A stretch of 64,000 nt of DNA, taken from NCBI GenBank assembly GCA_024685775.1, contig JAIKVL010000007.1, forward strand, positions 15,627 to 79,626, read 5' to 3'. Positions 33,485 to 60,299 of the stretch are shown one piece after another; position 1 is the first letter of the stretch; every line of letters begins with the position of its first letter. The notes under the pieces are model-generated. The model was not told where the DNA came from. It made no database searches and was given only the letters and a program-made list of their open reading frames with translations. A program made the position numbers and the translations under genes. Source of the stretch: Clostridia bacterium (GTDB lineage: Bacteria; Bacillota; Clostridia; Christensenellales; CAG-1252).

Positions 33485-33523
33485 AATCCCGCGTGATTCC
33501 TTCCGGGTGCGCGGGATTTTTTT
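33485..33523 (+). terminator. Rho-independent terminator
   Basis: AATCCCGCG...CGCGGGATT plus T-run. Confidence 0.7.
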
Positions 33524-33573
33524 ACGGGGAGCGACCCTGTTTTTTCCTTGCGGAAAAACGGCGGGCGCGCATA

Positions 33574-33603
33574 TTGACAAAATTTTCGCCAATATGTTAT
33601 TAT
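33574..33603 (+). promoter_or_regulatory. sigma-A promoter of amidase lipoprotein gene
   Basis: TTGACA-18-TATTAT with extended TG. Confidence 0.7.
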
Positions 33604-33662
33604 ATATAATTATAAAACGCACATCCCGCGCGAGGCGCCGATATTCGATCAAGGAGAATACC

Positions 33663-38657: not shown

Positions 38658-38738
38658 CCCTCGGAAACGCGCGGCGATCCGCCGCGCGCTACGATTTGAT
38701 TTTTTACTTTCGATATGCATCTCGGAAAGGAGAAACCT

Positions 38739-39497
38739 ATGAAAAGACGGATAACGATCTTTTTGATTGTCGCGACGGTTTTCGCTCTTGCGAGCGGGTT
38801 GTTTTCCTGCGACAAGAATAAAAGCGAACTCTCGGATCCCGAATTTCAAGCTCCTTCGCTCGTCGCGACCTACGGGCAGACGCTTTCCGACCTCGATCTT
38901 CCTGAAGGTTTCGTTTGGCAGGATCTCGAATCGACTTCGGTCGGAGAGATCGGAGAGCATACCTTCCTCGCTTCCTATCATCCGAAAGATCTCGCGAAGT
39001 ATAAGATCGTGAGCGGCGTCCGAATCCTCGTGACGGTCGAAAAACGCCCGACGGACGTAGAGCCGCCGGATCCGATCCTCGCCGTCTACGGCGATACCCT
39101 TCAAGATCTTGCGCTCCCCGAGGGCTTTTCTTGGCAAGAAGATCCGAGCACTTCGGTCGGAAGCGTCGGGGATGCCGTCTTTTACGCGACCTATACTCCC
39201 GAAGATCCCGCGCATAACGAGATCGTTCGCGATTTGGCGGTCACGGTTCTCGTGGGAAAAGCGACTTACGACCTGTCGGGCGTCGTCTTCGACAGTAAAG
39301 CGGTCGTCTACACGGGCGAACCGATCTTCCTCTCGATCCGCGGGACGCTTCCCGAAGGCGTGACGGTTTCTTATGAAAACAACGGGCAAACGGAAGTCGG
39401 CGCGTACGTCGTTAAAGCGGTTTTTAAGGGGGACGAGGCGAACTATAATGCGATCGAGGATTTGACGGCGAATTTGGTCATCACGCGCGGAGAATAA
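38739..39497 (+). CDS. lipoprotein with two Ig-like repeats and an MBG domain
   Basis: Lipobox LFSC; twice YGxTLxDLxLPEGFxWQ...SVG; YTGEPI...LPEGVTVSYENNGQTEVGAY...ANY. Confidence 0.8.
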   Translation: MKRRITIFLIVATVFALASGLFSCDKNKSELSDPEFQAPSLVATYGQTLSDLDLPEGFVWQDLESTSVGEIGEHTFLASYHPKDLAKYKIVSGVRILVTVEKRPTDVEPPDPILAVYGDTLQDLALPEGFSWQEDPSTSVGSVGDAVFYATYTPEDPAHNEIVRDLAVTVLVGKATYDLSGVVFDSKAVVYTGEPIFLSIRGTLPEGVTVSYENNGQTEVGAYVVKAVFKGDEANYNAIEDLTANLVITRGE

Positions 39498-39556
39498 GAG
39501 GAAAGAGCGGTTTATCTTCCGTCGAGTTCCGCGTCGCTTCGCCGAATCACGAGAAT

Positions 39557-39598
39557 AAAAAAGGGTTTTACCGAAAGAAAGGTAAAGCCCTTTTTTTT
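39557..39598. terminator. bidirectional terminator between convergent surface-protein genes
   Basis: AAAAAAGGGTTTTACC-gaaagaaa-GGTAAAGCCCTTTTTT. Confidence 0.85.
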
Positions 39599-39707
39599 GT
39601 ATTCGTTCATCGCGCGGATCTCCGCAAGCCCGTTTTCGCGCTTCGTTTACGCGATCCGAAGATCGGATGCGCGGCGCTAGCGAAGCGGGGCAGGTCGCAT
39701 CCTCGCT

Positions 39708-42700
39708 TTATTTGACGATGAGGATGATGAAGCGATGCCCCGTCGCGCTTCCGTAGGTCAGCGTCTCGCGGATGAAGTAGACCCTGCCGCTGTAACCCGC
39801 GCTATTCAGCGAGGAAGAGACTTTGCTCGAAGCGGTGTCCAAAGAGGCGCAATAGGATGATTCGATAAAGAAATCGAAGGTGAACGTCACCGTGGACGCG
39901 CTTTGAATTTGCGGCAAAACGACCGCGATCAGGTCGCCGAATTCGGCGTCGCTCGAAATTACGAGGTCGTTGGAAGAGGACGCGGGCGCCGTCCCGTAAT
40001 GGACGAACGAGAAGGGATTGGATTGCGTGATCGCCGCGCAACTCGATTCCGCATAGTTATCGGCGGTATAGCCGAGAGGATCGGTCTTCGTCGCGTCGCT
40101 GATCAGGAAGCTTTCGAGGTTCAGGATCTCGCAATTAGAAGAATCGGTCGGGATCACCGATTCGAGGTTTGCGTGCGTCGTGTCCAAAACGAACCATTTC
40201 TTAACGCCGCTTCCGTCGTCAATCCAAACGCGGTTCCAAGCGTGTTCGTCTCCGATGACGCGGATGCATTTGATGTCTTCGAGACCCGCGAGGATCGAAA
40301 CGGCTTTTGCGATGCCGTCGCAGATCGCTTTCTTATAGATAAAGACGCCTTCGACAGACCACGCCGTGCAATGCGCCCATTCGAAAGAAGCTTGATCCGA
40401 AGCGTCGGAAGCCCCGTAATCGTAGCCGACTTCCTCGACCATCCATTGCAGGATCGCATACAACTTTTGAACGTCGGTCATTTGATCGGTTATGATCGAG
40501 CGATTGATCTCTTTCGCGATATTCAGCATCGCTTCCGCGGCGGATCCCGAAACGGGGATGGGTTTATAGCCGTGGGAGAAGGCGTAAAAGAGTTGATCCG
40601 AGGTCGTTACCGAGACCGTGTTCGAACGGGATAGATAGGGGAAATCGTTAAACGAGCCGCTTCTCGCCGCTCCGACGGGGGCGATCCTCAAAAAGTCTTG
40701 TTGCGGGTAAATACGGGAATCGTAATCGTCGGGAGTTATGGTGTTTACTTTGCTGAACGAGAAGTCGGCGTTGTCGGCGCAGTTTACGCGGAAATAGCGG
40801 ATCGTCGAGCCCGAAGTCATCGTGTAAAAATTCGGTACCCACGTCTGCGCGGTCATAAGCGCCATTGCGGATTCCAAGATCGATGAATAGTTCGAAGTCG
40901 TCGCGCCGGGATAGGAGAAGTATTTGTTCGTCGTGATCATATTGAAGACCATATAATCGAGGAACATCGCGAGTTCTTTTATAGATCCGATCTCGATCAA
41001 GGTCGAGGAATTGTTGCCGCGCGAAGAGAATTCCGTGGTGTAATCCAAGAGTTCGTCTCGCTGGCAGGCTTTGCAGGTATAGGCTTCGTAGACGTGGCTT
41101 CCGAGCGCGCCGCCCGCCGAAGAGGAGAACGCGTCGCTGCAACGGGAACAAGCGTAATTATCCTGCGCATATTCGATGCAGGTCGCGGGAGTCGTGCTCG
41201 TCAAGACGTAATCGTGACCGAGCGCGGGAGTCGCCGCATAGGTCGAATAATCGCAGAGCGAGCAGGTCTGATAAGCGGCGTAGCCCGGAGACGTGCAAGT
41301 GGCGGGTTGCGCGCTATGCGAGACCAGCTGATGCGGGGAGGTCGGGCAGGAGGAGATGGCGAGATCTCCCGTCTGGTTACTTCCGTTGTTGCTGAAAATA
41401 ATCTGCGTCGCTCTCTTGTCCACGTCGATGAAATACCACCCCGTGTGGGTCGAGTCCGCGGTCATCGCCGTTCCCGGCCAGCCGCCGAGATAAGGCGTGT
41501 TTCCGTCTCCCCAAGCATAGGCGTAAACCGAGCCCCATCCGTTTTCGTTATGATAATAGACCGTATTGGTCGTGGATTCCGCGGGGTAATCCGCCGTCCA
41601 AACTCCGTCCTTATAATAGGGCGAGGAGAAGGAGATCGTCAGATCGTCCGTTTGCTGGCTTTGGTTTGAACCGTTCGAGAAGATGATCTTTTCGGCTTTG
41701 GTGTTGACCGAGACGGAGAACCAATTTTCGTGCTCGCCGACCGCGGTCATCGCCGTTCCCGCCCAGTCGCCGAGATATTTGGTCTCGTTTCCCGAAGTCC
41801 CGCTCCAAGCATAGGCTTTGACCGAATTCCAACCGTTCGAGTTATAGTAGTAGATCGTCTCGAAAGTGTCGACGCCCGCGGGCGCGCTCATCGAAGCAAC
41901 GCTGAGTATGCGAGAGCTTCCGATCGACGACGGGGTAAACGCCGCGGACTCTTGCAGGACGGTCGAGACGTTCGTCTCGTCGCAGCGCAGGAGCTTGAAG
42001 GACGAGACCGTCTTCGAGAGATTGCGGACGCTATCCCAGTTTATGGTATACGTGCGACCGTCCGTCTCCGTCTTGACGAAAGCACCCGCATCCGTCGTTA
42101 CGGACGAAGAATCGGTATAGTCGATCGCAAGCCTAAGGACCGAGCCGCTTTCCGTATAGCCGCCCCAAAGGATCTTGAAGGTCAGCGCGTAATACGGAGT
42201 GCGTTCGTTCGCGGAGATCTCCGTAAGATCGCTTTCCGACAAGGTCAGTTTATGCGTAAAGCCCAAGGGCAGGCTCGACGTCTTGTTGAACATATACGTT
42301 CCCGCGGCGTTCATTCGGACGATGACGACCGAGGAGACCGCTTTTTGAGCGTCCGTCGAGTAGGTGTAGGTGTTCGCCTTGGTGCGGGTCATTGCCGCGC
42401 CGGGGTAGGGGGCGTTCGTCGAATTATCCGAATAGGTGACGAAGATATTCGCGCGGCAGTTATCCGCTTCGAACCAAGTCACCGCCGAGGTGTCGAGCGT
42501 CAAAGCTCCCGTCCAAGCGTCCATCGAGGGGATCGAGATGGTGCGCGTCGTGCCGATGCTGTCGCGGTCGGTAGACTCGTTCCAGACGATATCGTTATTC
42601 GCAGGGTCGCAGCGCAGAAGTTTGAACTTGGAAACGGTCTTGTTCGGGTCAAGGGTCGCGTTCCAATCGATCGTGTAGGTCTCGCTGTCCGTTTCGGTCT

Positions 42701-47981: not shown

Positions 47982-48291
47982 GGGGCTCCTTTCTTCGGGG
48001 TTGATTCGACTCTCTTACGGTTGATTTTCGATCGGATCTTGTGTGACCGATACGCATGCGGCGAAGCAAGGAGAAGGAAAACCCTTCGGTCTGCGAAAAA
48101 TCGCCGCCGTCCGCGGAAAAACGCGGAGCTTATATTATTTTACAACTTATACTGTATAAATTGCAATAGTAAGGCGAAAATGCATATATTTTATTCATTT
48201 TGTATAAAACGGCTGAATAATCGTTCCGCTTTGCGCGGCTCGTCGCAAAACGGGATGAGTGGCGAAAGGCTTTTCGGGAGCGGGGAAGAAT

Positions 48292-48323
48292 AAAAAAACG
48301 CGGGACTTTTCATCCCGCGCTTT
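48292..48323 (-). terminator. terminator of diguanylate cyclase gene
   Basis: Minus strand CGCGGGA-tgaaaag-TCCCGCG plus T7. Confidence 0.8.
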
Positions 48324-48329
48324 ATGCGA

Positions 48330-49712
48330 TCAATTCTTTTTCGAATCCTTGTCTTTTTCGTGCGTCTGCCGTTTTTGCTCGTACATCCGCTTATCGGCGA
48401 CGCGCATCAGCTTCTTGAAGCTGTTTTCGTCCGATTCGGTCGCGTAAGCGTAGCCGACGGAAACGCTGATATGCTCGCGCTCGATCGCGAAATTGAAATG
48501 GTCCACGCGCGTCTTGATCTCTTCTTCGGAGCAATCGCGAAGGATCGCCGCGAATTCGTCGCCGCCGATGCGGTAGCAGTTGCCCGCGTTTCCTTTGCTG
48601 AAACACTCGCAAATGCAGGAGCCGGTGGTTTGGATGAGCTTATCGCCCGCGAGGTGACCTTGCGTGTCGTTTACGCGTTTCAAATAGTTTACGTCGAAAA
48701 GGATGACCGCCATCGGTCCGCCGCTTTCGTTTCTTTCGAGAAGGTTACATTCCAAGCTGTAACGGTTGGGCATCCCGGTCAACGCGTCGGTTTCGGCGGC
48801 GGAGCGCAGGATGGTTTCGAGTTTATTTCTGCGGAACAAAAGTTCGTTATACGCGCCCGCCATTAAGCGAAGCTCGCGGATCCCGCCTTGTTTTTTGAGG
48901 TTTTGGTCGGAAGCGATCAAGTTGCTGTATCTGCGGAGCGGCATAATGAGCCAATGGAAGAAGAAGATGAACGTAACGACCGAGATCGCGATGATCGCGA
49001 TGATGACCGACCAAAGGGCGACGCGCAGTTTTTGGATGCGCTCTTCGCTCTCGACGGCGGATTTTGTGAATTCGTCCTGAATGGTCTTATTGCAATTCGT
49101 TGCGTTTTGGTTCAATAAAACCTTGGCGGAGCTGTAATTCGTATCGAGAATCAGCTGTTTCGCCGTCTCGATGCGTTGCGCGGGCGTCATCGCCTCTTCC
49201 TCTTCGGTCAGGGGGACGGAGGGGATCGCGGTCAGCGCGGGGATCGGGGGGAGCGCGTAGACGGAGCGCATCAAAGATAAAGCGTGGATTTGAAGGTCGA
49301 TCAGCTCCTGCGCTTTTGCCGCCGCGTCGTTTAGAAAAGTCTGAACGGCGGAACTGACGTTATGCTGTTTGAATTGTTCGACGAAATAGGGGCCTCTGTG
49401 TTCCTCAATGGTAAGTTCGCCGCTGTATGCGATCAAATATCCGAAATTCAAGGTTCCGTCTTCGCTAACCGGCATCGAGATAAAAGCGGTCATCGTTTCG
49501 GAGAGTTTGCTCGCGCCCGCCTGCAATTCCGTGACTTGGTTTTGGTACGCGATCGATTGATTCATCGAATCGGTCAGTCGGTTCGTGGCGTGGTTAACGT
49601 CGTAAACGAGGGCGACGATCGTGCCGTACAAAATCGTGAGGATGACGATAAGAGGAACGACGAACGAGTTCGCTGCGAAACCATCGGGTTTGGTTGTTCT
49701 CTTGTCTTTCAT
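48330..49712 (-). CDS. membrane-bound diguanylate cyclase (GGDEF)
   Basis: Two TM segments flanking an extracellular domain; ETDALTGMPNR, FDVNYLKRVNDTQGHLAGD, YRIGGDEF. Confidence 0.93.
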   Translation of the reverse strand: MKDKRTTKPDGFAANSFVVPLIVILTILYGTIVALVYDVNHATNRLTDSMNQSIAYQNQVTELQAGASKLSETMTAFISMPVSEDGTLNFGYLIAYSGELTIEEHRGPYFVEQFKQHNVSSAVQTFLNDAAAKAQELIDLQIHALSLMRSVYALPPIPALTAIPSVPLTEEEEAMTPAQRIETAKQLILDTNYSSAKVLLNQNATNCNKTIQDEFTKSAVESEERIQKLRVALWSVIIAIIAISVVTFIFFFHWLIMPLRRYSNLIASDQNLKKQGGIRELRLMAGAYNELLFRRNKLETILRSAAETDALTGMPNRYSLECNLLERNESGGPMAVILFDVNYLKRVNDTQGHLAGDKLIQTTGSCICECFSKGNAGNCYRIGGDEFAAILRDCSEEEIKTRVDHFNFAIEREHISVSVGYAYATESDENSFKKLMRVADKRMYEQKRQTHEKDKDSKKN

Positions 49713-49751
49713 AATACTTCCTTTGAAACAAATTTGCAGCTATAAATATAT

Positions 49752-49780
49752 TTTATACCACACTCGGGCGCATATGTCAA
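49752..49780 (-). promoter_or_regulatory. sigma-A promoter of diguanylate cyclase
   Basis: TTGACA-17-TATAAA with extended TG, minus strand. Confidence 0.8.
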
Positions 49781-50117
49781 GTTTTTCGTTTTTTTTCGAC
49801 GCGGATCGGCGCCGGTTCGTGTAACGGAATCGTTACGTTTTGATTGAGAAATTCGATTTTCTCTTATTTTTCCGAAAATCCTTCCTTGGTGTGGATCCGC
49901 TTCGCGCTCGGAAGAGAATCGTTACTCGGCGAGCGGGAATATCTCCGAAAATTTTTTTTTCGGATCGTCGTTTTTTTATAAAAACGGGATAGTGCGCGGG
50001 CGTGCGGGTGAAAATATATTCAAAGAAATGAACTGCTCGGTTGACGGGTCGAGCGCAAATGTTGTAATATAAATGCGTACGTCAGAAAAATATAAAAAAA
50101 GAAAAGTGGAGTTGCTT

Positions 50118-51320
50118 GTGAGAATAGCTGTGGTTGGAATGGGATACGTCGGGATGTCGAATGCGGTTTTGCTCTCGCAGAAAAACGACGTGATTTGCGT
50201 CGACGTCTCGAAGGAAAGGATCGATATGATCAACGGCAAAAAGTCGCCGATCGTCGATCGCGAGATCTCGGATTATTTGGAGAATGAGAAGCTGTCCTTG
50301 AAGGGGACGATGGATAAAAACGAAGCGTATAAAGACGCGGAGTTTATCATTATCTCGACGCCGACGGATTATGACACGGAAAAAAAATATTTTAACACCT
50401 CTTCGGTCGAGTCCGTTATTCAGGACATTTTGAACGTGAATCAAAAAGCGACCATCGTCGTCAAGTCGACGATCCCCGTCGGACACACGGAGTATTTGAG
50501 AGAAAAATTCAATACGTCGAACATTTTGTTTTCCCCCGAGTTTTTGAGGGAAGGAAAAGCTTTGTACGATAACTTATATCCTTCGAGGATCATCGTCGGT
50601 TGCGATATGAAAGATCCGGCGGCAAGGGAGAAAGCGAAGACGTTTGCGAATTTGCTTTTGAGCTGCACGATCAAAAAAGACGCGCCCGTTTTGATCACGA
50701 ACACGACGGAAGCGGAAGCGGTCAAGCTTTTCGCAAACACCTATTTGGCGCTTCGGGTCGCCTTTTTCAACGAACTCGACACGTTCGCGGAAGAGAAAGG
50801 ACTCAGCGCGAAGGACATCGTTTCCGGCGTTTGCTTGGATCCGAGGATCGGCATGCAGTACAACAATCCTTCTTTCGGTTACGGCGGGTATTGCCTCCCG
50901 AAGGACACGAAACAGCTTCTCGCAAACTATGACGGGATCCCGCAGAGTTTGATCCAAGCGGTCGTGCAAGCCAATCGGACGAGGAAAGATTATATCGCCG
51001 ACAGGGTGATCTCTCTCGCAATCGCGACGGGAAAAAAAGACCCGATCATCGGCATTTACCGCCTGACAATGAAAATGGATTCCGACAATTACAGAAAAAG
51101 TTCGATTCAAGGCATCATCCGCAGGATCAAGGAGCACGGGTTCACCGTCGTGATCTACGAGCCGACGTATAAGGGCGATGAGTTTTTCGGAGATAAGATC
51201 GTCTCCGATTTGGAAGAGTTTAAGAAGTCTGCGGATATTATCGTCGCGAACCGATTCGGAGACGAGCTTGCGGACGTCGAACAAAAAGTCTTTACGAGAG
51301 ATCTTTTTTTGAAGAACTGA
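50118..51320 (+). CDS. ugd: UDP-glucose 6-dehydrogenase
   Basis: GTG start after GGAG; VVGMGYVG, VKSTIP, FSPEFLREG, EAEAVKLFAN, GYGGYCLPKD. Confidence 0.95.
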   Translation: MRIAVVGMGYVGMSNAVLLSQKNDVICVDVSKERIDMINGKKSPIVDREISDYLENEKLSLKGTMDKNEAYKDAEFIIISTPTDYDTEKKYFNTSSVESVIQDILNVNQKATIVVKSTIPVGHTEYLREKFNTSNILFSPEFLREGKALYDNLYPSRIIVGCDMKDPAAREKAKTFANLLLSCTIKKDAPVLITNTTEAEAVKLFANTYLALRVAFFNELDTFAEEKGLSAKDIVSGVCLDPRIGMQYNNPSFGYGGYCLPKDTKQLLANYDGIPQSLIQAVVQANRTRKDYIADRVISLAIATGKKDPIIGIYRLTMKMDSDNYRKSSIQGIIRRIKEHGFTVVIYEPTYKGDEFFGDKIVSDLEEFKKSADIIVANRFGDELADVEQKVFTRDLFLKN

Positions 51321-51338
51321 TTCAAAGGAAGTGGTTTT

Positions 51339-54300
51339 ATGAAGATCGATTTTGAAAATGAACCTTTGGTTTCGGTTCTCGTATTCGGGAAAAAATCACA
51401 GAAACTGAACGACAACGAGAGGTCTGTTTTAAATAACCAGACGTATAAAAACCTGCAAACCGTTATCGTTCCCGACGAAGGCAAAACGATAGAAGGAATT
51501 ATTGAAGCGCTTTCCCTTGTGAAAGGTGAATACGTTTGTTTTTGGGATATCAATAATTTGCTTTCCAAAGATTTCATTCGCGCGTTGGTCGTCGCTGCGA
51601 ACGATTCCGGCGCGGACTTCGTTCTTTCCGACGTCAGTAGAGTAGAAGACGAAAAATATATGGAGTATAACCTCGATCCGTTGCGCCGAGCGGATCTCTC
51701 TAAAAAAGGGAATGAAATCATCAATTTTTTTGTGGAGTACTGGTTTCGCTTTTGGGGCGTGTACGACGTTTGGAATAAACTGATTCGGTCCTCGCTTATC
51801 GCTCCGATTTCGGATTGTCTGAATACGTATTCGACTTATAAGAATAACGACGAGGGTTTTCAGACGATTTCCAGATACGTTTTGTCCTTTTCCATTTGGA
51901 ATTCGGCAACCTATCTTATAAACGAGCATAACGTCTACGCCTATTGCCGTAGGGCGCCTCGGATGACTTCCGCGCCGCTTAAAACGATCAGGCAATTCAA
52001 AAAGTTGTATGAGATTCTTTTCTGCGCGCTGAGAATGAACGACGTGGATGATCGGGGGTTAAGGATATACTTGGGGCGTTTCGTCGCTTCGGAATTTTCT
52101 CTTGATTTGAGGAATAATGCGATCTATAACGAGTTGAAGTATTTTTCTGCGGAGCCGACCTGTCTTCAAAAATCCGATCAATATTTTTACAGCGCGGAAA
52201 CCAAGATTCCGAATATTTTTCACGTTGAGGAACGTTTGAAATTGGCGATCGCCGACCCGAAGACCAAAGTCGTCAGTTTCGATATGTTCGACACGTTGGT
52301 TTATCGTCCGCTGTTTTATACGATCGACGTTTTCAGTTTGTTGAATAAAGATTTTAACGATAGGATCAAATCCACTTCCGTCGTTGACTTCGCCTATTTG
52401 AGACAGACTGCGGAGAAAGTCGCGCGAGAGAATGCGAGAAAGAAAAAAATCGAAGAAATAACGATCTACGATATTTATAGGACGCTCCACAGACTTTACG
52501 GGATCGAAGAAGAGGTTTGTACTTATATGCTGAATCGCGAGTTGGAAACGGAACTTTCCGTTTGCAAGGCGAAGCCGAGCATGAAGAAAATCTTCGATTT
52601 GGCGAATTATTATAAGAAAACGATCCTTATTTCCACGGATATGTATCTTCCCGCAGAAACGATCCATAAGATCCTTGCGGCGAACGGGTACGAGAATTAC
52701 AGACTGTATCTTTCCTCCGAGCTGAAAAAGACCAAAGGCAGCGGCGCGATGTTCAAGAAAATCATTGAAGATTTCAAAGCGGAAAATTGCTTGCCTTCGG
52801 AGATTATCCATATCGGGGATAATTATTCTTCCGACTTTAAAAACGCGCAGGAAAAAGGACTGGTCGCATTTCATATCAATAGTTCCGTGAACGTCTTTAA
52901 GGGGGGAAATCTTACTTGTTACGGCGGCGAGAGCTATAAGAATTTGTACACAAAGAATACGTTCTTTGCGAAAAATCAATGGCAGATCGACCATTACTTG
53001 GGTTTGAGAATGTTCTGCGGGTTGGTCGCCAATAAATGCTTCGATTATCCCGCAATCTCTATGAACGGCGATTCCGATTTTGATGCGAATCCTAATTACG
53101 TCGGATACTATTGTCTCGGCGGTCTGCTCTTGGGCTTAACGAGATGGCTTTTGGATGAGACGAAGAACAAGGGCGTTTCGACGATCCATTTCGTCGCCCG
53201 AGACGGATGGCTTCTCAAACGCTTCTACGATATATATACCGCAAATATGCCCGACGCGCCGAAATCGAATTATCTTTATATTTCGAGAAAGTCGCTTTTT
53301 ACGTTGGACATAAACGGAGTAGACGACTTGTTAGCGGTGTTGAATAATAAGTTGTCCGCAAACGCAAGTTCGCCGAGAAAGATTCTCGACCTTTTGAAAC
53401 CGATCATTAAGAAAGATCAGTTCAAGCGCTTGCAACTCGAAGTAATGCGCGATTACGATTACGAAGCGCCTTTCGAGAAGAATATCAATTACACGTATTT
53501 CATCACGGCTTTTATTCGCAAGAACAAAAACTGCTTTGATTTCGTAACGGATAAGGAACGCGCGCGTGCATATTTCGGTGAGATCATTAAAGAGGGAGAC
53601 GTCCTCTTTGACGCAGGTTACACCGGGCGAAGCGAATCGACGATTTCTTCTCTTCTCGGGTTTCCCGTCAATGCGTTTTATCTTCATTCGAACGGAGACG
53701 TCTTGGATCAGAGAGAACAGCGCTTCGGTTTCGAGACGAAATGTTTCTATCCTTGGCGCCCGAATAATACGGGAATTATTCGCGAACACGTCTTGATGGA
53801 ATATGCTCCTTCGGTAATAGGCTACGATTTTGACGCCGAAGGAAATAAAGTCGTTTTCGGTGAATTCCAAGAGGACGTTTGCGTGAAATGGTTTACCGAG
53901 AGATTGCAGTCCGCCGCGTTGGATTTTTGCCGGGACTTTTTGGATGCTTTCGGAAACTATTTGGATCGTTTTTACGTCAGCAATTATACGCTGTCGATGC
54001 CGATGGAATACTTCCTCCATATGGCGAAGCCGTTTGATCGGAAAATCTTCGAAGCGCTGTCTTTCGAGGATGATATCGGCGTGGGCGGGACGACCAATGC
54101 GACGGATTTTTGGCAAAGCAAAATATCCGAGTTGAACGCCAATCTTATGTCTGCAAAGAAGGGCGCGGCTCCCTCGTCTTCGGATAAACAGAAGGGGACG
54201 TTTGAACTCGTCGACAATAACGTTTTGAAACGGATTACGGACGGGTTGAAACTTCCGCCGCAACCGCTTGTTAAAGTAAAGGAAAAGAGAAAGAATAAGA

Positions 54301-56390
54301 TTTTGCTTTATTCGAATGAGCTGAGCTGGTCGGGCGCGCCGAGAAGCCTTCTCAGGATTTGCAAAGTTCTTCTTCGTTACGGTTATGACGTGGAAGTATG
54401 GTCTTTATATGACGGCGACCTTAGGAAAGAATACGAGAAATTAAAAGTTCCCGTTAAGATTTGCGATTACAATAACGCGGATTATGCCTATGCTTTTGAT
54501 ACTTTCGATTTGTGTATCGTAAACGCTGCCGTTTCCTATAAGTTCTATTACATCATTCAACAGTATCTTCCCACGGTTTGGTATATTCGCGAAGCGACGA
54601 ATTTGCAGGATCTTTGTATCGGAAATAAGGGAATGGCGGAAGTTTTGCAAAGTTCGTTGGATATGGTGTGTGTCAGCGAATACGCAAAGTCCTACATTGT
54701 GAAATCCTACAACGAGAACGTGCAAGTCGTGCCGAACTGCGTCGAAGATAAAGCGAATCTCGATTACGTCAAGCCTAAAACGAAAGAAGTCGTTTTCCTG
54801 ACGTTGGGCACGATCGAACCGCGCAAAGGGTACGACATCATTATTGAAGCGATGGAGACCCTCCCCGAAGAGTATAAAGGATCGGTCAAGTTTGTGTTCG
54901 CAGGGCGCGTCTTGGATTTTTGCAAGGACTGGGCTCTGAACGTTATCGAAAGATCAAAGGAATTGCCGAATGTCGAATATTTGGGTGAGGTCACGGAGGA
55001 AGAAAAACTCCACGAACTCTATCGAAATAGCGACGTGGTCGTCGTCGCTTCGAGAGATGAATCCTGTTCGTTGGTGGCTCTTGAAGGCACGATGCACGGT
55101 AAACCCTTGATCGTTACGGAGAATACCGGCGCGAAGTATATGGTGACCGACGAAAACGGTTATATTATTAAGACGGCGGATGCGCAGGCGCTTCAAGAGA
55201 GTATGCTCTCTTTCGTAAGCAAATCCGAGAGCGAATTGACTTCGATGGGAAAAGCGTCTCGCGAGAGATACGAGCAACTCGCCAATATGGAAGTCTACGA
55301 CAAGAATATTCTCGCAATGGTCGAGAATAAGATCAAAGTCGAACATAAGACTCTTGAAAAGCCGCAAACCGATAAACCGATCATTCCGATCATTCTTGCG
55401 ACGAATTCCGGATATGCGCCGTATGCGGGCGTTACGATTCAATCCGTTTTGGAAAACGGTAGCAAAGATTACTTCTATGATTTTTATATCTTTTATACGG
55501 AACTCGGCGAAGAAACACTCAGAAAACTGAACGTCGTTAACGATAATTATCGCATTACGACTTTTAACATTTCTTCGTATCTGAATAACGATATGCATTT
55601 GAAGACTTGCGCGCATTACACGACGGAGACCTACTATCGTTTCTTCTGCCCGAAGATCCTTCCGTTCTATGATAAGGTTATCTACTTGGATTGTGATTTG
55701 ATCGTTTTGGATGATATCAGCAAAATGTTCGAAATCGATCTCGGCGGGAAGGCGATCGGCGCTGTTCATAATTATATGAATCAATTCGTCGTTGGGTACG
55801 TCAAGAAAATGAATTTGGATCCGGAAGCCTACTTCAATGCGGGCGTCTTGGTTATTGATACCAAGAAATTTGCCGAGAATAAGGTCAGAGAGCGCGCGTT
55901 CCGCACTTTGGCGCAACACCCCGAGTTTATTATGCTGGATCAGGACGCGTTGAATATCGTTTGTAAAGACGACGTCGTCTTTATTCCGAACCGTTGGAAC
56001 GTCCAATGGCATCATTTCGAGGCGAAATGTGACGTCGTAATCGATAAACAGCGTTGCTTGGATGCTTATGCGGCGCCTGCCATTTTGCATTTTACAGGGA
56101 AAAACAAGCCTTGGAATGATGCGAAAATCCCCAAAGCCTTCCTGTTCTGGGAGATCGCGCAAAAGACGGACTTCTTGTTTGAGATTCTGAAAAAGATGCA
56201 GACCAACGTCTATGTTTTAAATGGCGGCGATAAAGGAAGAGTGTCGCAAGGGTCGAGCGCGGGAAATAAGACGAAAAAAGGTTTTCGTTATTACGTTCGC
56301 AGATTCAATAAACTTGCGAAAACGTACGGTCTTTTCTTCGCGATCAAGAAGACGATTTTATTCTTAAAAAAGAGGAGAAACCGGGAATGA
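51339..56390 (+). CDS. 1683-aa multidomain glycan synthase: degenerate GT2 - HAD phosphatase - phosphoribosyltransferase-like - GT4 - GT8
   Basis: SFDMFDTL 52281 and HIGDN 52809 (HAD); FVARDG 53190 and LFDAGYTGRS 53610 (PRT-like); EPRKG and EX7E ESCSLVALE 55059 (GT4); YYRF, LDCD, FNAGV, DQDALN, HFTGKNKPW (GT8). Confidence 0.85.
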   Translation: MKIDFENEPLVSVLVFGKKSQKLNDNERSVLNNQTYKNLQTVIVPDEGKTIEGIIEALSLVKGEYVCFWDINNLLSKDFIRALVVAANDSGADFVLSDVSRVEDEKYMEYNLDPLRRADLSKKGNEIINFFVEYWFRFWGVYDVWNKLIRSSLIAPISDCLNTYSTYKNNDEGFQTISRYVLSFSIWNSATYLINEHNVYAYCRRAPRMTSAPLKTIRQFKKLYEILFCALRMNDVDDRGLRIYLGRFVASEFSLDLRNNAIYNELKYFSAEPTCLQKSDQYFYSAETKIPNIFHVEERLKLAIADPKTKVVSFDMFDTLVYRPLFYTIDVFSLLNKDFNDRIKSTSVVDFAYLRQTAEKVARENARKKKIEEITIYDIYRTLHRLYGIEEEVCTYMLNRELETELSVCKAKPSMKKIFDLANYYKKTILISTDMYLPAETIHKILAANGYENYRLYLSSELKKTKGSGAMFKKIIEDFKAENCLPSEIIHIGDNYSSDFKNAQEKGLVAFHINSSVNVFKGGNLTCYGGESYKNLYTKNTFFAKNQWQIDHYLGLRMFCGLVANKCFDYPAISMNGDSDFDANPNYVGYYCLGGLLLGLTRWLLDETKNKGVSTIHFVARDGWLLKRFYDIYTANMPDAPKSNYLYISRKSLFTLDINGVDDLLAVLNNKLSANASSPRKILDLLKPIIKKDQFKRLQLEVMRDYDYEAPFEKNINYTYFITAFIRKNKNCFDFVTDKERARAYFGEIIKEGDVLFDAGYTGRSESTISSLLGFPVNAFYLHSNGDVLDQREQRFGFETKCFYPWRPNNTGIIREHVLMEYAPSVIGYDFDAEGNKVVFGEFQEDVCVKWFTERLQSAALDFCRDFLDAFGNYLDRFYVSNYTLSMPMEYFLHMAKPFDRKIFEALSFEDDIGVGGTTNATDFWQSKISELNANLMSAKKGAAPSSSDKQKGTFELVDNNVLKRITDGLKLPPQPLVKVKEKRKNKILLYSNELSWSGAPRSLLRICKVLLRYGYDVEVWSLYDGDLRKEYEKLKVPVKICDYNNADYAYAFDTFDLCIVNAAVSYKFYYIIQQYLPTVWYIREATNLQDLCIGNKGMAEVLQSSLDMVCVSEYAKSYIVKSYNENVQVVPNCVEDKANLDYVKPKTKEVVFLTLGTIEPRKGYDIIIEAMETLPEEYKGSVKFVFAGRVLDFCKDWALNVIERSKELPNVEYLGEVTEEEKLHELYRNSDVVVVASRDESCSLVALEGTMHGKPLIVTENTGAKYMVTDENGYIIKTADAQALQESMLSFVSKSESELTSMGKASRERYEQLANMEVYDKNILAMVENKIKVEHKTLEKPQTDKPIIPIILATNSGYAPYAGVTIQSVLENGSKDYFYDFYIFYTELGEETLRKLNVVNDNYRITTFNISSYLNNDMHLKTCAHYTTETYYRFFCPKILPFYDKVIYLDCDLIVLDDISKMFEIDLGGKAIGAVHNYMNQFVVGYVKKMNLDPEAYFNAGVLVIDTKKFAENKVRERAFRTLAQHPEFIMLDQDALNIVCKDDVVFIPNRWNVQWHHFEAKCDVVIDKQRCLDAYAAPAILHFTGKNKPWNDAKIPKAFLFWEIAQKTDFLFEILKKMQTNVYVLNGGDKGRVSQGSSAGNKTKKGFRYYVRRFNKLAKTYGLFFAIKKTILFLKKRRNRE

Positions 56391-57745
56391 ATCAGTTCTT
56401 CTGCGATAAGATGAATAACATTCAGATCACCGATTGGGTCAAAAAGGAACTTGGCGCAAATCGTTTTAAGATGTTTGATCATAATGTGAGTTATTTGAAT
56501 GATTCGGGATTGACCGTTGATGTTGAACACATTTCGAACTTTCCGCAAGGTCGCTTTAAACTCAATTTCAAGGGGAAATCTTTTGATGTTTTTTTTAATT
56601 TTAAACCTCAAAAACCACTTTACGTTTTTTTGAACGGTTGGTTGATGGATACTTATCCCGAGTTTAAGCGTTGGTATTGGTATACGTTTATCGAAGGCAG
56701 CGTATTGAATATCGCCGATCCGATGCTTAGGGATTACAATGATCTTCGTTTGGGATGGTACTATGGTTCAAAGTCTTTTGATTACAGGCGTTGTATCGCC
56801 GAGATGGTGACGCTGATTGCAACGCAACTGAAAATAAAAAAGAAAGATATCATTTTATACGGTTCGTCGGGCGGCGGTGCCGCTTGTTTTGAGATCGCTT
56901 CTTTGATCCCGGGGTCGACCTGCGTCGCAATCAATGCACAGTTGTATTTGGAATCGTTTTCTTATTATGATCGGTTTAAGTCCATTACGCAACTGGATCC
57001 TCTTCACGATCCTTTGAAAAGGAATAATATTGAGCATTGGATAAAGCTCAATAATAAAACCCGTTACATTTTGGTGGAAAACGTTTTATCGGAGAATGAC
57101 CGAGACAACATAATGCGGCTGAGCCAATCGTTAAACTTCCCAATTCGATATGGCATATCAAAAGAGAAGAATATCATCGTGTGGTGTTATTCAGCGGAAG
57201 CGGATGACCCGCATAATGCGCAGGAAGACTGCTATGTGCATTTTCAAATAATGCAATTGCTCAATCTGTTCGACAAGCCCGGCGATTTTGACTCGTATAA
57301 ATCGCTGTATATGCTTTTCTCGGAAATGTGGTATAACAAATGGAAAGACTTGCTGCTTTCCAACGAACAAAATGAATCGATTATTGATTTGAATTCAAAT
57401 CAAACCGAACCCGTTTACGAAAAAAAGCAATTTATTTTGGTAGCGACGGATTCGAGTTATAATGCGTTCGTTTTTCCGAATTCGTTAGAGGAATCCACGC
57501 GTTATTTGATTCGTATTCAGGGTGCGAAATTGAGCGGAGCGGAAAACTATGTCATTGCAATTAAAGACCGAAGAAAGAATGACCTTATTTGGTCGTGCGA
57601 GTTGAAAGACGGGGATTCCGTTACCGAGTTTATCACCGGATCGCGGGTGAAGTGTCTTGAATTAAAGATATACGCAGGGGTTCCTTGGAAGACGAATAAC
57701 GTTGGACTTTCGATCGAAAATTTGTCGATCGAAAAGTTCGTTTAA
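56387..57745 (+). CDS. alpha/beta-hydrolase-fold protein of polysaccharide locus with C-terminal beta-rich domain
   Basis: Nucleophile elbow ILYGSSGGGAA, AINAQ, later H; start overlaps the upstream stop (ATGA); AT-rich. Confidence 0.65.
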   Translation: MNQFFCDKMNNIQITDWVKKELGANRFKMFDHNVSYLNDSGLTVDVEHISNFPQGRFKLNFKGKSFDVFFNFKPQKPLYVFLNGWLMDTYPEFKRWYWYTFIEGSVLNIADPMLRDYNDLRLGWYYGSKSFDYRRCIAEMVTLIATQLKIKKKDIILYGSSGGGAACFEIASLIPGSTCVAINAQLYLESFSYYDRFKSITQLDPLHDPLKRNNIEHWIKLNNKTRYILVENVLSENDRDNIMRLSQSLNFPIRYGISKEKNIIVWCYSAEADDPHNAQEDCYVHFQIMQLLNLFDKPGDFDSYKSLYMLFSEMWYNKWKDLLLSNEQNESIIDLNSNQTEPVYEKKQFILVATDSSYNAFVFPNSLEESTRYLIRIQGAKLSGAENYVIAIKDRRKNDLIWSCELKDGDSVTEFITGSRVKCLELKIYAGVPWKTNNVGLSIENLSIEKFV

Positions 57746-57842
57746 TCAATTATCTCAAATTCTCTTTGTAGACAAAATAAAAAAGTCCTCGGTTTTATAA
57801 ATCAATCGGAGTAAGTGTGATTTGAAAACGAGGACTTGTTTT

Positions 57843-58589
57843 TTAAAGCATTTCTTTTAATTGTTGGGCAAGATTTCTATAATAATCATCCGTATAGTGA
57901 ACGGGGAATAATCCCAATTTGTGATTGGCATTTCCGATGGGCTCGTCTTTCGATAAAAGCACTTTTGCTTTCGGTAATGCTTTTATAAAAAGATTTGTAA
58001 CCTTGTGAGTAAGTTCGCGATCCTTTGTATATTCGTCCAAATGATCGAACGTCTTGAATACATTGTTTTCGTCAACGTATTGCTGTGCATATAAAAAATC
58101 ATTGATAATGATATTTTCTTCGTCGTATTTTCCCCGAATAATTGCGATGAAGCGTTGGACTAAATTTTCCCATTCTTCATCGGATATGGTTTGCGGAGAT
58201 TTTATGGTATAATCAATGATTTTTTGACTCTTAAGAGCGTTAAGGGTCGGTTTCGTTGTTAAACTGTTACAAATGCAATACTTTTCTAAACCATTAATGC
58301 ACAAAATGTTTGATCTGCAATCGTAAGTATCGATCATTAAGTATTTGGCTTTGAAGTTTTCTTGAAAATATGGTACGGCTTGCTTGTAAAAATTCAATTT
58401 TGCCATTCTGCGAGTAAAATTGGACGTTGCCAGTATTTGATCGTCTTCGATAGGCCAAGGCTCTCCGAAGAGAGTTTGGATTGGATTCTGCAAAATATGA
58501 TAACCGACCTTGAAATCGGTTGTAAAGTTGAAGATTTCTCTTGATACGCAGGCACCCCAAATATCTATAACCGGCTTATTCTCATTCAT
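57843..58589 (-). CDS. DUF6270-like (SGNH-like) protein
   Basis: IDIWGACVSREIF N-terminal motif, YLMID, HKLGLFPVHYTDDYY C-terminal motif; AT-rich. Confidence 0.65.
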   Translation of the reverse strand: MNENKPVIDIWGACVSREIFNFTTDFKVGYHILQNPIQTLFGEPWPIEDDQILATSNFTRRMAKLNFYKQAVPYFQENFKAKYLMIDTYDCRSNILCINGLEKYCICNSLTTKPTLNALKSQKIIDYTIKSPQTISDEEWENLVQRFIAIIRGKYDEENIIINDFLYAQQYVDENNVFKTFDHLDEYTKDRELTHKVTNLFIKALPKAKVLLSKDEPIGNANHKLGLFPVHYTDDYYRNLAQQLKEML

Positions 58590-58849
58590 AACTTTATCCT
58601 CTCTCTTAGTGTAACACTAACAATTATATAATAGTATTTATAACCCAAACCGTCAAGGAGAAAATTGCTCTCGACGGATATGTGTGAGAGGAGCAAAGCG
58701 CCGAAAGAATCGTACGAGCCTCTTTTAGAAGGAATTACCGTTGTTGATTTTGTTATACTATAAAAATTGAAATTGCTATTGACCTCATAAGAATTTCGAT
58801 GATAAACTATAAATAATATTGATTCCTGCTTTTTTAAGTAGAAAATCAA

Positions 58850-58924
58850 AATGCCGACTTGTCCTGTAAAACTATCAACGTGGAGCTTTCGATCGAAAAA
58901 TTGACGATCGAGAAATATGTATAA
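58850..58924 (+). pseudogene. relic 3' end of a homologue of the 452-aa hydrolase gene
   Basis: 58877-58924 encodes NVELSIEKLTIEKYV* versus NVGLSIENLSIEKFV* at 57698-57745; 38/48 nt identical, same stop position. Confidence 0.75.
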
Positions 58925-58925
58925 A

Positions 58926-59939
58926 ATGTCAGAAGTATCCGTTTCCGTAATCGTACCTTTCTATGATAATTCCGAGTTTTTGAAGCCGTGCTTGAAGAGC
59001 ATTCAACGGCAGACTTTGAAAAATTTGGAAGTCATTTTGGTGAGCGACGGCGCTGATCCCAAACTTTTGGGGTCGGTTCGATCCTTTTTGTCGGATGATC
59101 GTTTCGTCTTGTTGGAAGAGTCTCACAAAGGAGTCTCTGCCGCGCGGAATTTAGGTATCGAGCGCGCGCACGGGAAATATATTGCTTTTATGGATTCGGA
59201 CGATTTTTATCCGAATAAACGGACGTTGCAGCGGCTTTTCGAGACTGCCGAAAGAGAGAATGCTCGGATTTGCGGTGGTTCGCTTGCCGAATGCAGGGAC
59301 GGTTTGTTGGTGCAATCGTTCGGAGAAGATTCGTTCGGGTTCCTTTTCCGCGAAGAAGGTTGGCGCGATTATTCCGATTATCAATTCGATTTGGGGTTCT
59401 ATCGCTTTATCTATGATCGAAACCTGTTGATCGATAACGCGATCGTTTTTCCGCCCTATATCCGCTATCAAGATCCTCTCTTTTTTATAAAAGCGATGCG
59501 CGAAGCTAAGTCGTTTTACGCCGTTCCCGACGTTACCTATTGCTATCGAGTCGGGCATCAATCGAGACTTTACGAATGGAGCGAAGATAAGTGGTCCGAT
59601 TATTGCAAAGCGATTTTGCAAGAAATGAATCTTGCGAAAGAATTTGGTTATGACGGATTGCTTGAAGTCGCTTGGAAGAGATGCCTTTTCGCTGCGTCAA
59701 TTTTGTCTATGACTCCGTTTTCGAGCCGATATTCGGAATCGTTGAATGCTGCGCTTGTTGAAAAAAAAGACGGCTTCACCGAGAAAGATTTGTTGGTGGA
59801 AGAGCGACGCGTGCTCGGTCGGGAATTGAAGAAAGCGCAGGATGAGATCGACTCGATTCGAAGTTCTCGGACGTACAGATTAGGGCGTCTTCTTACTTTT
59901 TTACCTCGTTTGTTAAAGGAAAAAAAACATCGGGAATAA
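58926..59939 (+). CDS. GT2 glycosyltransferase
   Basis: VSVIVPFYD, CLKSIQRQTL, GVSAARNLG, YIAFMDSDD, YQD; C-terminal coiled coil SSRTYRLG; alternative ATG 58917. Confidence 0.92.
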   Translation: MSEVSVSVIVPFYDNSEFLKPCLKSIQRQTLKNLEVILVSDGADPKLLGSVRSFLSDDRFVLLEESHKGVSAARNLGIERAHGKYIAFMDSDDFYPNKRTLQRLFETAERENARICGGSLAECRDGLLVQSFGEDSFGFLFREEGWRDYSDYQFDLGFYRFIYDRNLLIDNAIVFPPYIRYQDPLFFIKAMREAKSFYAVPDVTYCYRVGHQSRLYEWSEDKWSDYCKAILQEMNLAKEFGYDGLLEVAWKRCLFAASILSMTPFSSRYSESLNAALVEKKDGFTEKDLLVEERRVLGRELKKAQDEIDSIRSSRTYRLGRLLTFLPRLLKEKKHRE

Positions 59940-59984
59940 TTCGGATGCTTTTAGAAAAAGGCTTGTCATAATCTCGGGTCGGAA

Positions 59985-60299
59985 ATGCAAATGACGGATT
60001 TTCAGAGGCGGGTTTTGGAATTTCTTTTGACCGTTCCGAAAGGGGAGGTCGTGACGTATGGGCAGATCGCCCGCGCGCTCGGGAAGCCGAAGGCGGCAAG
60101 GGCGGTCGGGAACGCGCTGCATCGGAATCCGGACGGCGAAAAGTACCCCTGTTATAAGGTCGTTCGCGCGGACGGATCGCTTTCTCCCGCCTATGCTTTC
60201 GGCGGGGTCGCCGCGCAGCGAGAACGCCTTCTTTCGGAAGGGATCGCCGTTCAAGGCGATCGGGTGGATCTTTCGAAAACCCCGCGCCGTCTCTCTTGA
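59985..60299 (+). CDS. MGMT/Ogt DNA-binding-domain-only protein
   Basis: VPKGEVVTYGQIA, ARAVGNAL, PCYKVV, QRERLLSEG. Confidence 0.88.
   Translation: MQMTDFQRRVLEFLLTVPKGEVVTYGQIARALGKPKAARAVGNALHRNPDGEKYPCYKVVRADGSLSPAYAFGGVAAQRERLLSEGIAVQGDRVDLSKTPRRLS

Follow-up and report, generated by a model that had tools for sequence, protein, structure and literature searches.

The window analysed here is a stretch of 64,000 nucleotides (nt) from an uncultured Clostridia bacterium (assembly GCA_024685775.1, contig JAIKVL010000007.1, positions 15,627 to 79,626), and all positions below are those of the window. One gene in it, at 51339..56390 on the forward strand, was recognized as an open reading frame (ORF) of 1683 amino acids (aa) with no internal stop. 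Its product, called the synthase below, was assigned five domains in one chain, i.e., a GT2-derived domain, a HAD phosphatase, a middle domain, a GT4 glycosyltransferase (GT), and a GT8 glycosyltransferase, followed by a basic tail. The same layout had been read from the letters of the DNA in an earlier note, and it is borne out by Pfam matches, alignments, and fold models. Checks of the ORF, the motifs, the Pfam matches, and the tail recovered every sequence feature which that note had described. The motifs were located at residues 70-72 (DIN), 315 (DMFDT), 493 (GDN), 618 (FVARDG), 649 (SR), and 756 (LFDAGYTGRS).

In the Pfam search, the GT8 family was matched at residues 1351-1594 (E 9e-49), the C-terminal half of GT4 at 1146-1309 (E 2e-25), and the N-terminal half of GT4 at 987-1069. 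The HAD family was matched at residues 310-499 with 25.9 bits, just short of its gathering score (26.4). Pfam and NCBIfam searches gave no match for residues 1-300 and 520-960. The motif set appears to exceed chance, as its members are invariant or at least 90% conserved in 45 relatives and lie inside significant alignments to solved structures. A linker of low complexity was placed at residues 941-985 (54159..54293, forward strand); its length and sequence vary across the clade, and the predicted local distance difference test score (pLDDT) falls below 50 at residues 942-958. The synthase has no transmembrane segment, i.e., no 19-residue window exceeds a Kyte-Doolittle value of 1.14.

Full-length relatives with the same architecture are 1600-1750 aa long and share 37-98% identity with the synthase (P0002-P0009, and L007 from Candidatus Borkfalkia faecavium). 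The gene was found in gut metagenomes from cattle, sheep, goats, and other hosts. An artefact of assembly or gene fusion was ruled out, as the architecture recurs in independent ENA, Logan, and NCBI assemblies.

The probable ribofuranose module

The HAD domain was predicted as a phosphoribosyl phosphatase (PRP), similar to CrpP, at residues 305-520 (52251..52898, forward strand). The middle domain was predicted as a glycan phosphoribosyltransferase (gPRT), similar to CriT, at residues 530-940 (52926..54158, forward strand), by a domain-only fold match, sequence alignment, and conservation. This domain combines a helical bundle with an alpha/beta catalytic core, and residues 654-749 form a helical insert. 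Two solved structures served for comparison. Bcs3 is the multi-module capsule polymerase of Haemophilus influenzae type b, with the order CroT-CrpP-CriT-SH3b (PDB 8A0C, 8A0M, and 9H50; PMC10299916), and 7SHG is a PDB deposit named 'Ribofuranosyl transferase' from Thermobacillus composti. All characterised bipartite ribofuranose (Ribf) transferases produce beta-Ribf from phosphoribosyl pyrophosphate (PRPP) (PMC11127046).

When residues 300-970 were searched against PDB sequences by phmmer, Bcs3 (E 2e-14) and 7SHG (E 8e-14) were matched, each in two stretches, one in the HAD domain and one where the transferase domain begins. The HAD domain was aligned to residues 385-589 of Bcs3 and 36-251 of 7SHG, and it was modelled with pLDDT above 93. 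The second stretch pairs residues 575-653 of the synthase with residues 636-714 of Bcs3. In it, FVARDG...SRK of the synthase stands opposite FISRDG...SRK of Bcs3 and FLSREG...SRK of 7SHG. A family profile made from 46 relatives reached Bcs3 with E 9e-45, unbroken from the HAD nucleophile through loop 2.

The AlphaFold2 model of residues 1-970 had a pLDDT of 85.1 and a predicted template modelling score (pTM) of 0.88. In Foldseek search with this model, Bcs3 was the top match (E 3e-23), followed by 7SHG (E 5e-19, 640 aligned columns), and structures with only a HAD domain were found far below, near 1e-6. Because differing orientation of domains depresses the global TM-scores of multi-domain models, the middle domain (residues 530-965) was also modelled alone by AlphaFold (pLDDT 87.8). 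The same effect of orientation was noted by the authors of the Salmonella T1 study for STM0726 against 7SHG (PMC11294581). With the domain-only model, only the chains of Bcs3 and 7SHG were found in the whole PDB at E <= 0.001 (4e-10 to 2e-8), with query TM-scores (TMq) of 0.48-0.57 over 360-416 aligned columns. The next match had E 0.03 and a probability of 0.09.

No nucleotide phosphoribosyltransferase (PRTase) was found at E <= 0.001 in this domain-only search of the PDB, and membership of the classical type I nucleotide PRTase family was rejected on this ground. The likeness to PRTases is confined to the PRPP-loop logic described for CriT. The PRT fold expected in the earlier note thus holds as the gPRT/CriT fold, by Foldseek with the domain-only model, but not as the classical type I fold. 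The PRPP-dependent core of CrpP/CriT type, which had also been proposed, is supported by homology to Bcs3 and 7SHG that extends past the HAD domain and by the fold match. The HAD and middle domains together are a candidate Ribf-adding PRP-gPRT pair like CrpP/CriT.

The HAD residues S313, F314, D315, F317, D318, T319, S433/D434, K466, G493, D494, and D499 are invariant in the alignment of 46 sequences. D315, the nucleophile within SFDxFDT, aligns with FDIFDT of Bcs3 and FDIFDT of 7SHG. The DxxDT motif reported earlier is the family's own form of HAD motif I.

In Bcs3, the PRPP site is formed by S678/R679/D680 of loop 1 and S707/R708 of loop 2, whereas loop 3, i.e., E818, the backbone of 821-825, and T825, binds the 5-phosphate. 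E874 is the putative base, and D680A and E818A lower the activity (PMC10299916). By direct alignment, R679/D680 correspond to R621/D622 and S707/R708 to S649/R650 of the synthase. By topology and conservation, E818 and 821-825 were tentatively assigned to D758 and the following A-G760-Y-T-G, and E874 to E816. In the gPRT domain, F618, D622, G760, E816, and D900 are invariant among the 46 sequences, and conservation is at least 90% at R621, G623, S649, R650, F757, D758, and Y761. F618, R621, R650, D758, and G760 are still invariant in a wider set with stand-alone and RgpF-fused relatives.

The modelled secondary structure appears to follow the CriT-CAT topology. A strand at residues 615-619 is followed by RDG, and a strand at 642-646 by SR. 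The helical insert at 654-749 would be the counterpart of HB-2. A strand at 755-758 ends in D758 and leads into a glycine-rich loop and a helix at 764-773, and E816 is located in a helix at 813-819, past the fifth strand.

The middle domain may have the gPRT fold and yet use another donor, phosphoribosyl-type or different, or be an inactive scaffold, so that no ribose would enter the glycan. The alanine at the position of Bcs3 S678 and the low identity to the solved enzymes in structural alignment (15-18%) are in line with such a domain. However, the paired HAD phosphatase, in which the catalytic motifs are all invariant, is sensible only if the product is 5-phosphorylated, and the PRPP-site residues R621, D622, S649, R650, D758, and G760 are strongly conserved over hundreds of relatives. 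Another donor or a scaffold role is most unlikely on this evidence. The alanine, A620, is the sole departure at the site and is usual in this Firmicutes clade.

The flanking domains and the C-terminal tail

The N-terminal domain, residues 1-295 (51339..52223, forward strand), was assigned as a GT2-derived pseudo-glycosyltransferase of GT-A fold by Foldseek, BLASTP, and motif loss. Foldseek search recognized GT2 enzymes, i.e., CgT (5hea; target TM-score, TMt, 0.62), TarP, TarS, and RmlT. By BLASTP, the domain matched that of the relative P0010 with E 3e-16; the P0010 domain is an intact GT2 and itself matches PF00535 with E 2e-39, whereas Pfam scan gave no GT2 match for the domain of the synthase.

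The catalytic signatures of the homologous GT2 domains are replaced in the synthase. PxYN of the relatives reads FGKK, E40 (43/45 relatives) is Q, DSDD reads DINN, and ED (36-40/45 relatives) reads SR. In addition, about 25 residues with the NxG...AR loop are deleted compared with intact relatives. The DxD motif is missing in all nine (9/9) members of the five-module clade, and the residues found in its place, i.e., WDINN, WCIDS, WNIEN, WSVKD, LHGFN, and LSKSG, are not conserved. The degenerate GT2 noticed earlier, with DIN in place of DxD, is thus borne out; all GT2 catalytic motifs are lost, and fold and homology are kept. By these sequence comparisons, the N-terminal domain appears to be a catalytically dead pseudo-glycosyltransferase retained as a fold.

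Some GT-A enzymes lack the DxD motif. The N-terminal domain could accordingly still be active through a non-canonical, metal-independent site, and four sugars would then be added per cycle. The GT-A fold is kept, residues 1-200 are confidently modelled, and D46, D70, and D78 are still present. Against this stand the loss of four signatures that are kept in 36-43/45 homologous GT2 domains (PxYN, E40, the second and third Asp of DSDD, and ED), the deletion that removed the NxG...AR loop, and the missing Pfam match. The replacement residues are unconserved within the clade, which argues against a new active site. A fourth sugar from this domain is very unlikely.

The dead GT-A domain is most likely a structural, acceptor-holding, or processivity module. 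The pTM of the three-domain model suggests a defined packing between it and the Ribf module. In the Salmonella T1 locus, no catalytic role could be assigned to the GT-A protein STM0725, but the PRP-gPRT STM0726 requires it to polymerise Ribf efficiently (PMC11294581). It is tentatively proposed, as one possibility, that the dead domain is an obligate helper of the gPRT in acceptor holding or processivity, i.e., a fused and degenerate counterpart of STM0725. The synthase would then be the first single-chain polymerase of a wall glycopolymer with a beta-Ribf trisaccharide repeat in Gram-positive gut anaerobes. If this is true, it would be a natural case in which to work out the need of Ribf polymerisation for a GT-A partner.

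Downstream of the module, the GT4 domain (GT-B fold, retaining) was found at residues 986-1335 (54294..55343, forward strand; PF00534 E 2e-25, PF13692, PF16994), and its EX7E pair, E1241...E1249, is invariant in the clade. The GT8 domain (GT-A fold, retaining) was found at residues 1348-1620 (55380..56198, forward strand), where PF01501 is matched with E 9e-49 over positions 2-251 of 253. D1451-x-D1453, D1534-Q-D1536, and H1584 are invariant in nine full-length relatives. The best PDB sequence matches of the GT8 module were the GT8 domain of WbbM (E 7e-27) and LgtC (E 6e-17). With Pfam matches and intact invariant motifs, both assignments of the earlier note are confirmed. Because GT4 and GT8 are retaining families, alpha-linked hexoses (Hex) are expected.

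The basic amphipathic tail, recognized by charge count and hydrophobic moment, occupies residues 1637-1683 and, with the stop codon, 56247..56390 of the forward strand. The last 47 residues hold 15 K/R and one D/E. The helical hydrophobic moment of the tail is 0.71, joint highest in the protein (mean 0.24, standard deviation 0.13), and most members of the clade carry a basic tail. The amphipathic character described earlier is upheld by both values, and the tail is a probable peripheral membrane anchor.

Neighbouring genes and the proposed pathway

A UDP-glucose 6-dehydrogenase (Ugd; UDP, uridine diphosphate) was predicted at 50073..51320 on the forward strand (NCBIfam PRK15057, E 1e-165). It ends 18 nt upstream of the synthase, and the start of the synthase is preceded by an AGGAAG ribosome-binding site. 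Ugd adjoins the synthase also in the related loci L001 and L003.

A 452-aa protein of unknown function is encoded downstream (56387..57745, forward strand), with its start overlapping the stop of the synthase (ATGA). It is kept beside the synthase in relatives and shares 42% identity with a 463-aa neighbour in L001. No Pfam family and no PDB sequence were matched, and the sole family match was weak, i.e., the XcbB/CpsF capsule protein at E 5e-5. A GSSGGG stretch in it resembles the nucleophile elbow of alpha/beta-hydrolases. The protein may be a polymer-modifying enzyme.

A DUF6270 protein of 248 aa was found at 57843..58589 on the reverse strand (PF19786, E 6e-22). In L001, L002, and L003, the synthase is flanked by a 569-aa DUF6270 protein in the same orientation as the synthase, and the window copy matches only residues 318-565 of that longer form at 29% identity. 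The short copy on the opposite strand is consistent with local rearrangement of the cassette. A stand-alone, intact GT2 follows at 58917..59939 on the forward strand (PF00535, E 2e-26), and this neighbour is likewise present in L001 and L003.

The neighbourhood common to the relatives is composed of Ugd, the DUF6270 protein, the synthase, the unknown protein of about 460 aa, and the GT2. L001 continues further, in the order Ugd, DUF6270, synthase, 463-aa unknown, GT2, NTP-transferase, ABC2 permease, ABC ATPase, DUF4422, GT4, Bac_transf, and Glf. In the genome of the window itself (1.7 Mb, 38 contigs, 97% complete), a partner set was found on contig C2 at 33498-41646. This set encodes a GlfT2-like protein of 619 aa, a GalU-like NTP-transferase, an ABC ATPase, an ABC-2 permease, a Bac_transf-GT4 fusion of 585 aa, whose parts are separate genes in L001, and DUF4422. 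Glf was found on contig C17 at 99259-100386. From the loci of the relatives, we infer that the synthase and the C2 genes share a function.

A permease, an ATPase, and a priming transferase, located in one locus in L001 and on C2 in the own genome, together with a membrane-peripheral synthase, are the parts found of an ABC-transporter-dependent system. The layout reads as the standard pathway of this kind, in which a lipid-linked primer and an adaptor would be followed by polymerisation in the cytoplasm and export. The adaptor of the pathway probably contains galactofuranose (Galf).

The glycan locus of 12 kb (48000-60000) has a G+C content of 0.40-0.46 against about 0.52-0.57 in the flanks, and the genome has about 55%. 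This island of low G+C lies between rplM (about 60517) and a gene for a GGDEF diguanylate cyclase (48330-49712, reverse strand), and it suggests horizontal acquisition or exchange of a cassette.

The synthase is likely a multi-module glycosyltransferase of the cytoplasm, bound peripherally to the membrane, that serves a cell-surface glycan pathway dependent on an ABC transporter. It would work by a Ribf cycle. In this cycle, the gPRT domain (about residues 530-940) would take ribofuranose-5-phosphate from PRPP and attach it, in a beta-Ribf-5-P linkage, to a lipid-linked glycan at its non-reducing end. The HAD domain (about 305-520) would strip the 5-phosphate with D315 as the nucleophile. The retaining GT4 and GT8 would attach two alpha-linked sugars from UDP-sugars, and one of them may be glucuronic acid (GlcA), because Ugd is a conserved neighbour. 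These additions would regenerate the acceptor of the gPRT, and the chain would grow as a repeat of about three sugars. The basic amphipathic C-terminus would keep the enzyme membrane-bound. The Bac_transf-GT4 fusion, DUF4422, the GlfT2-like enzyme, Glf, and the ABC-2 transporter, which are encoded elsewhere in the genome, would provide priming, an adaptor with Galf, and export. Polymerase activity and a product of Ribf plus two further sugars are suggested by domain content and gene neighbourhood. We infer the donors, the order of the steps, the linkages, and polymerisation rather than a single addition.

The same five modules could also act without polymerising. They would then add one Ribf-Hex-Hex unit to a polymer that other enzymes make, e.g., the Galf machinery, and this unit could be an adaptor, a terminal cap, or a side branch. 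The genome and the relatives encode GlfT2-like and DUF4422 galactofuranosyltransferases, which could build a main chain, and no sequence feature of the synthase reports processivity. In the Salmonella T1 antigen, blocks of Ribf and Galf can form separate domains in one glycan (PMC11294581). However, fusion of all GTs of a repeat unit in one chain with a C-terminal membrane-binding helix is the usual format of ABC-dependent polymerases (PMC11231755, PMC10299916), and no other gene of the locus comes near the synthase in size and conservation. A single addition is therefore rather unlikely, and polymerisation is the preferred reading.

Several points weigh against the function proposed above. 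Only moderate TM-scores (0.48-0.57) were reached against the solved structures. When the PDB was searched with a profile (A4) of residues 735-925, i.e., the C-terminal half of the gPRT domain, only chance matches were returned (E >= 0.05) and Bcs3 and 7SHG were missed, and the pairing of D758 with E818 and of E816 with E874 comes from topology and conservation. Loop 1 reads A620-R-D, in contrast to S-R-D in Bcs3 (S678). The transporter and priming genes of the own genome are placed on a different contig than the synthase. Nothing tells a processive polymerase apart from a builder of a defined oligosaccharide, and no RNA run was recovered for the gene in the search that gave the gut metagenomes.

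Comparison with known systems and distribution

Bcs3 is similar to the synthase in that a HAD phosphatase stands directly before a PRPP-dependent ribofuranosyltransferase in one chain, with shared order, fold, and loop 1 and 2 motifs. Further likenesses are its amphipathic membrane anchor at the C-terminus and its pathway, which depends on an ABC transporter. However, identity in structural alignment is about 14-18%, Bcs3 has its own TagF-like ribitol-phosphate transferase (CroT) and an SH3b polymer-binding domain, and its polymer is linked by phosphodiesters, whereas the synthase has a dead GT-A domain upstream of the module and GT4 and GT8 downstream. Because GT4 and GT8 are present instead of CroT and SH3b, a purely glycosidic polymer is expected. 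Orthology to Bcs3 was rejected, as CroT and SH3b are absent by Pfam and the PDB alignment to Bcs3 is limited to the CrpP-CriT part.

Cj1432 of the Campylobacter jejuni HS:2 capsule is a characterised protein of 1031 aa with the order GT-PRP-gPRT-helical bundle, and the capsule repeat contains Rib and GlcA (PMC12096443). By its description, it is like residues 1-970 of the synthase and like the relatives of about 1020 aa, i.e., an N-terminal GT is fused to PRP-gPRT. However, its N-terminal domain is an active GlcA transferase, and no GT4/GT8 is found at its C-terminus.

The stand-alone dual-domain enzymes, i.e., Thermobacillus composti 7SHG, Klebsiella O4 ORF5 and O7 ORF7, and Salmonella STM0726, share the PRP-gPRT pair with the synthase. 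Their donor is PRPP, their product is beta-Ribf, and dephosphorylation follows transfer. These enzymes are about 650 aa and work in trans with separate GTs, whereas the partners in the synthase are fused in cis. STM0725 is, by description, a precedent for a non-catalytic GT-A partner of the module, but it is a separate protein and its DxD motif is kept. WbbM, the Klebsiella O2a galactan I polymerase (PDB 6U4B) and best PDB match of the GT8 module, is likewise a multi-module polymerase of an ABC-transporter-dependent pathway. A DUF4422 domain, its partner domain, is encoded in the C2 locus of the own genome, but WbbM is without a Ribf module.

The domain combination was not recognized among described polymerases in the earlier note. 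The literature searched agrees with this, as it gives only the stand-alone enzymes, Bcs3, and Cj1432; the fusion survey of Kelly et al. 2022 lies outside that search. The Ribf enzyme type and its fusion into polymerases are already established (Bcs3, PMC10299916; Cj1432, PMC12096443), and the module family is abundant. What is new is the combination of modules, its setting in the Gram-positive gut flora, and the dead GT-A domain that the clade conserves.

Among the characterised examples in this literature, the PRPP-dependent ribofuranosyltransferases are from Gram-negative pathogens, and the enzyme type was recognized only in 2022-2023. The locus described here places the Ribf module inside a much larger assembly line in uncultured Clostridia of the ruminant gut, for which a ribofuranose-containing surface glycan is predicted. 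The named relatives of the host's Hsp33 are all from Clostridia, with identity of only about 38%, and a Gram-positive anaerobe is therefore a plausible host. Through the dead GT-A domain, which is conserved as a fold, the unexplained requirement of Ribf polymerisation for a non-catalytic GT-A protein, as with STM0725, can be approached from sequence. If the synthase polymerises three sugars including Ribf from cheap PRPP, such a single-chain enzyme would be useful for chemo-enzymatic glycan synthesis, like Bcs3.

By HMMER search of residues 300-970 against 1.84 billion representatives, 893 clusters were found at E <= 1e-30. The architectures were the stand-alone module (about 650 aa), GT2-module (about 1020 aa), which is the commonest, module-GT4 (about 1370 aa), RgpF-module ('rhamnan synthesis F', PF05045; P0160-P0169, P0175, P0177, and P0188, e.g., Megasphaera), and GT2-module-pyruvyltransferase (P0010, GT2-HAD-gPRT-PS_pyruv_trans). 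The five-module form was found in a few clusters only (P0002-P0009), and Candidatus Borkfalkia faecavium is a named genome with the full form at 50% identity. The gPRT domain has no model in Pfam or NCBIfam. In their sources, hundreds of the related clusters are unnamed or bear only names such as 'HAD hydrolase', 'glycosyltransferase', or 'rhamnan synthesis F', and the fusions with RgpF and with the pyruvyltransferase are annotated as 'HAD-IA family hydrolase', 'FMN phosphatase YigB', or 'glycosyltransferase'. A curated gPRT model would alter the annotation at many glycan loci.

In Nocardioides, a stand-alone GT8 gene immediately precedes the gene of a PRP-gPRT-GT4 fusion (1411 aa, 27% identity), in which the RD, SR, and D-x-G-x-S-G motifs are retained. 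This splitting of the trio of modules between a GT8 gene and a PRP-gPRT-GT4 fusion was seen in Nocardioides luteus. The literature search gave no paper that ties cell-wall polymers of Nocardioides to ribofuranose.

Two further matches were found outside the Clostridia as binned. In a metagenome-assembled genome of Candidatus Methanomicula labiotermitis (L014, WQZU01000022.1, 10001-16567), residues 298-1333, i.e., PRP-gPRT-GT4, were matched at 31% identity, and this archaeal copy could reflect horizontal transfer into the archaeon or a binning error. The other match is a contig of 5 kb binned as 'uncultured Alphaproteobacteria' (L006, CASFTO010000066.1), which covers residues 239-1683 at 52% identity. 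Because the full architecture is otherwise restricted to Clostridia, this contig is probably mis-binned.

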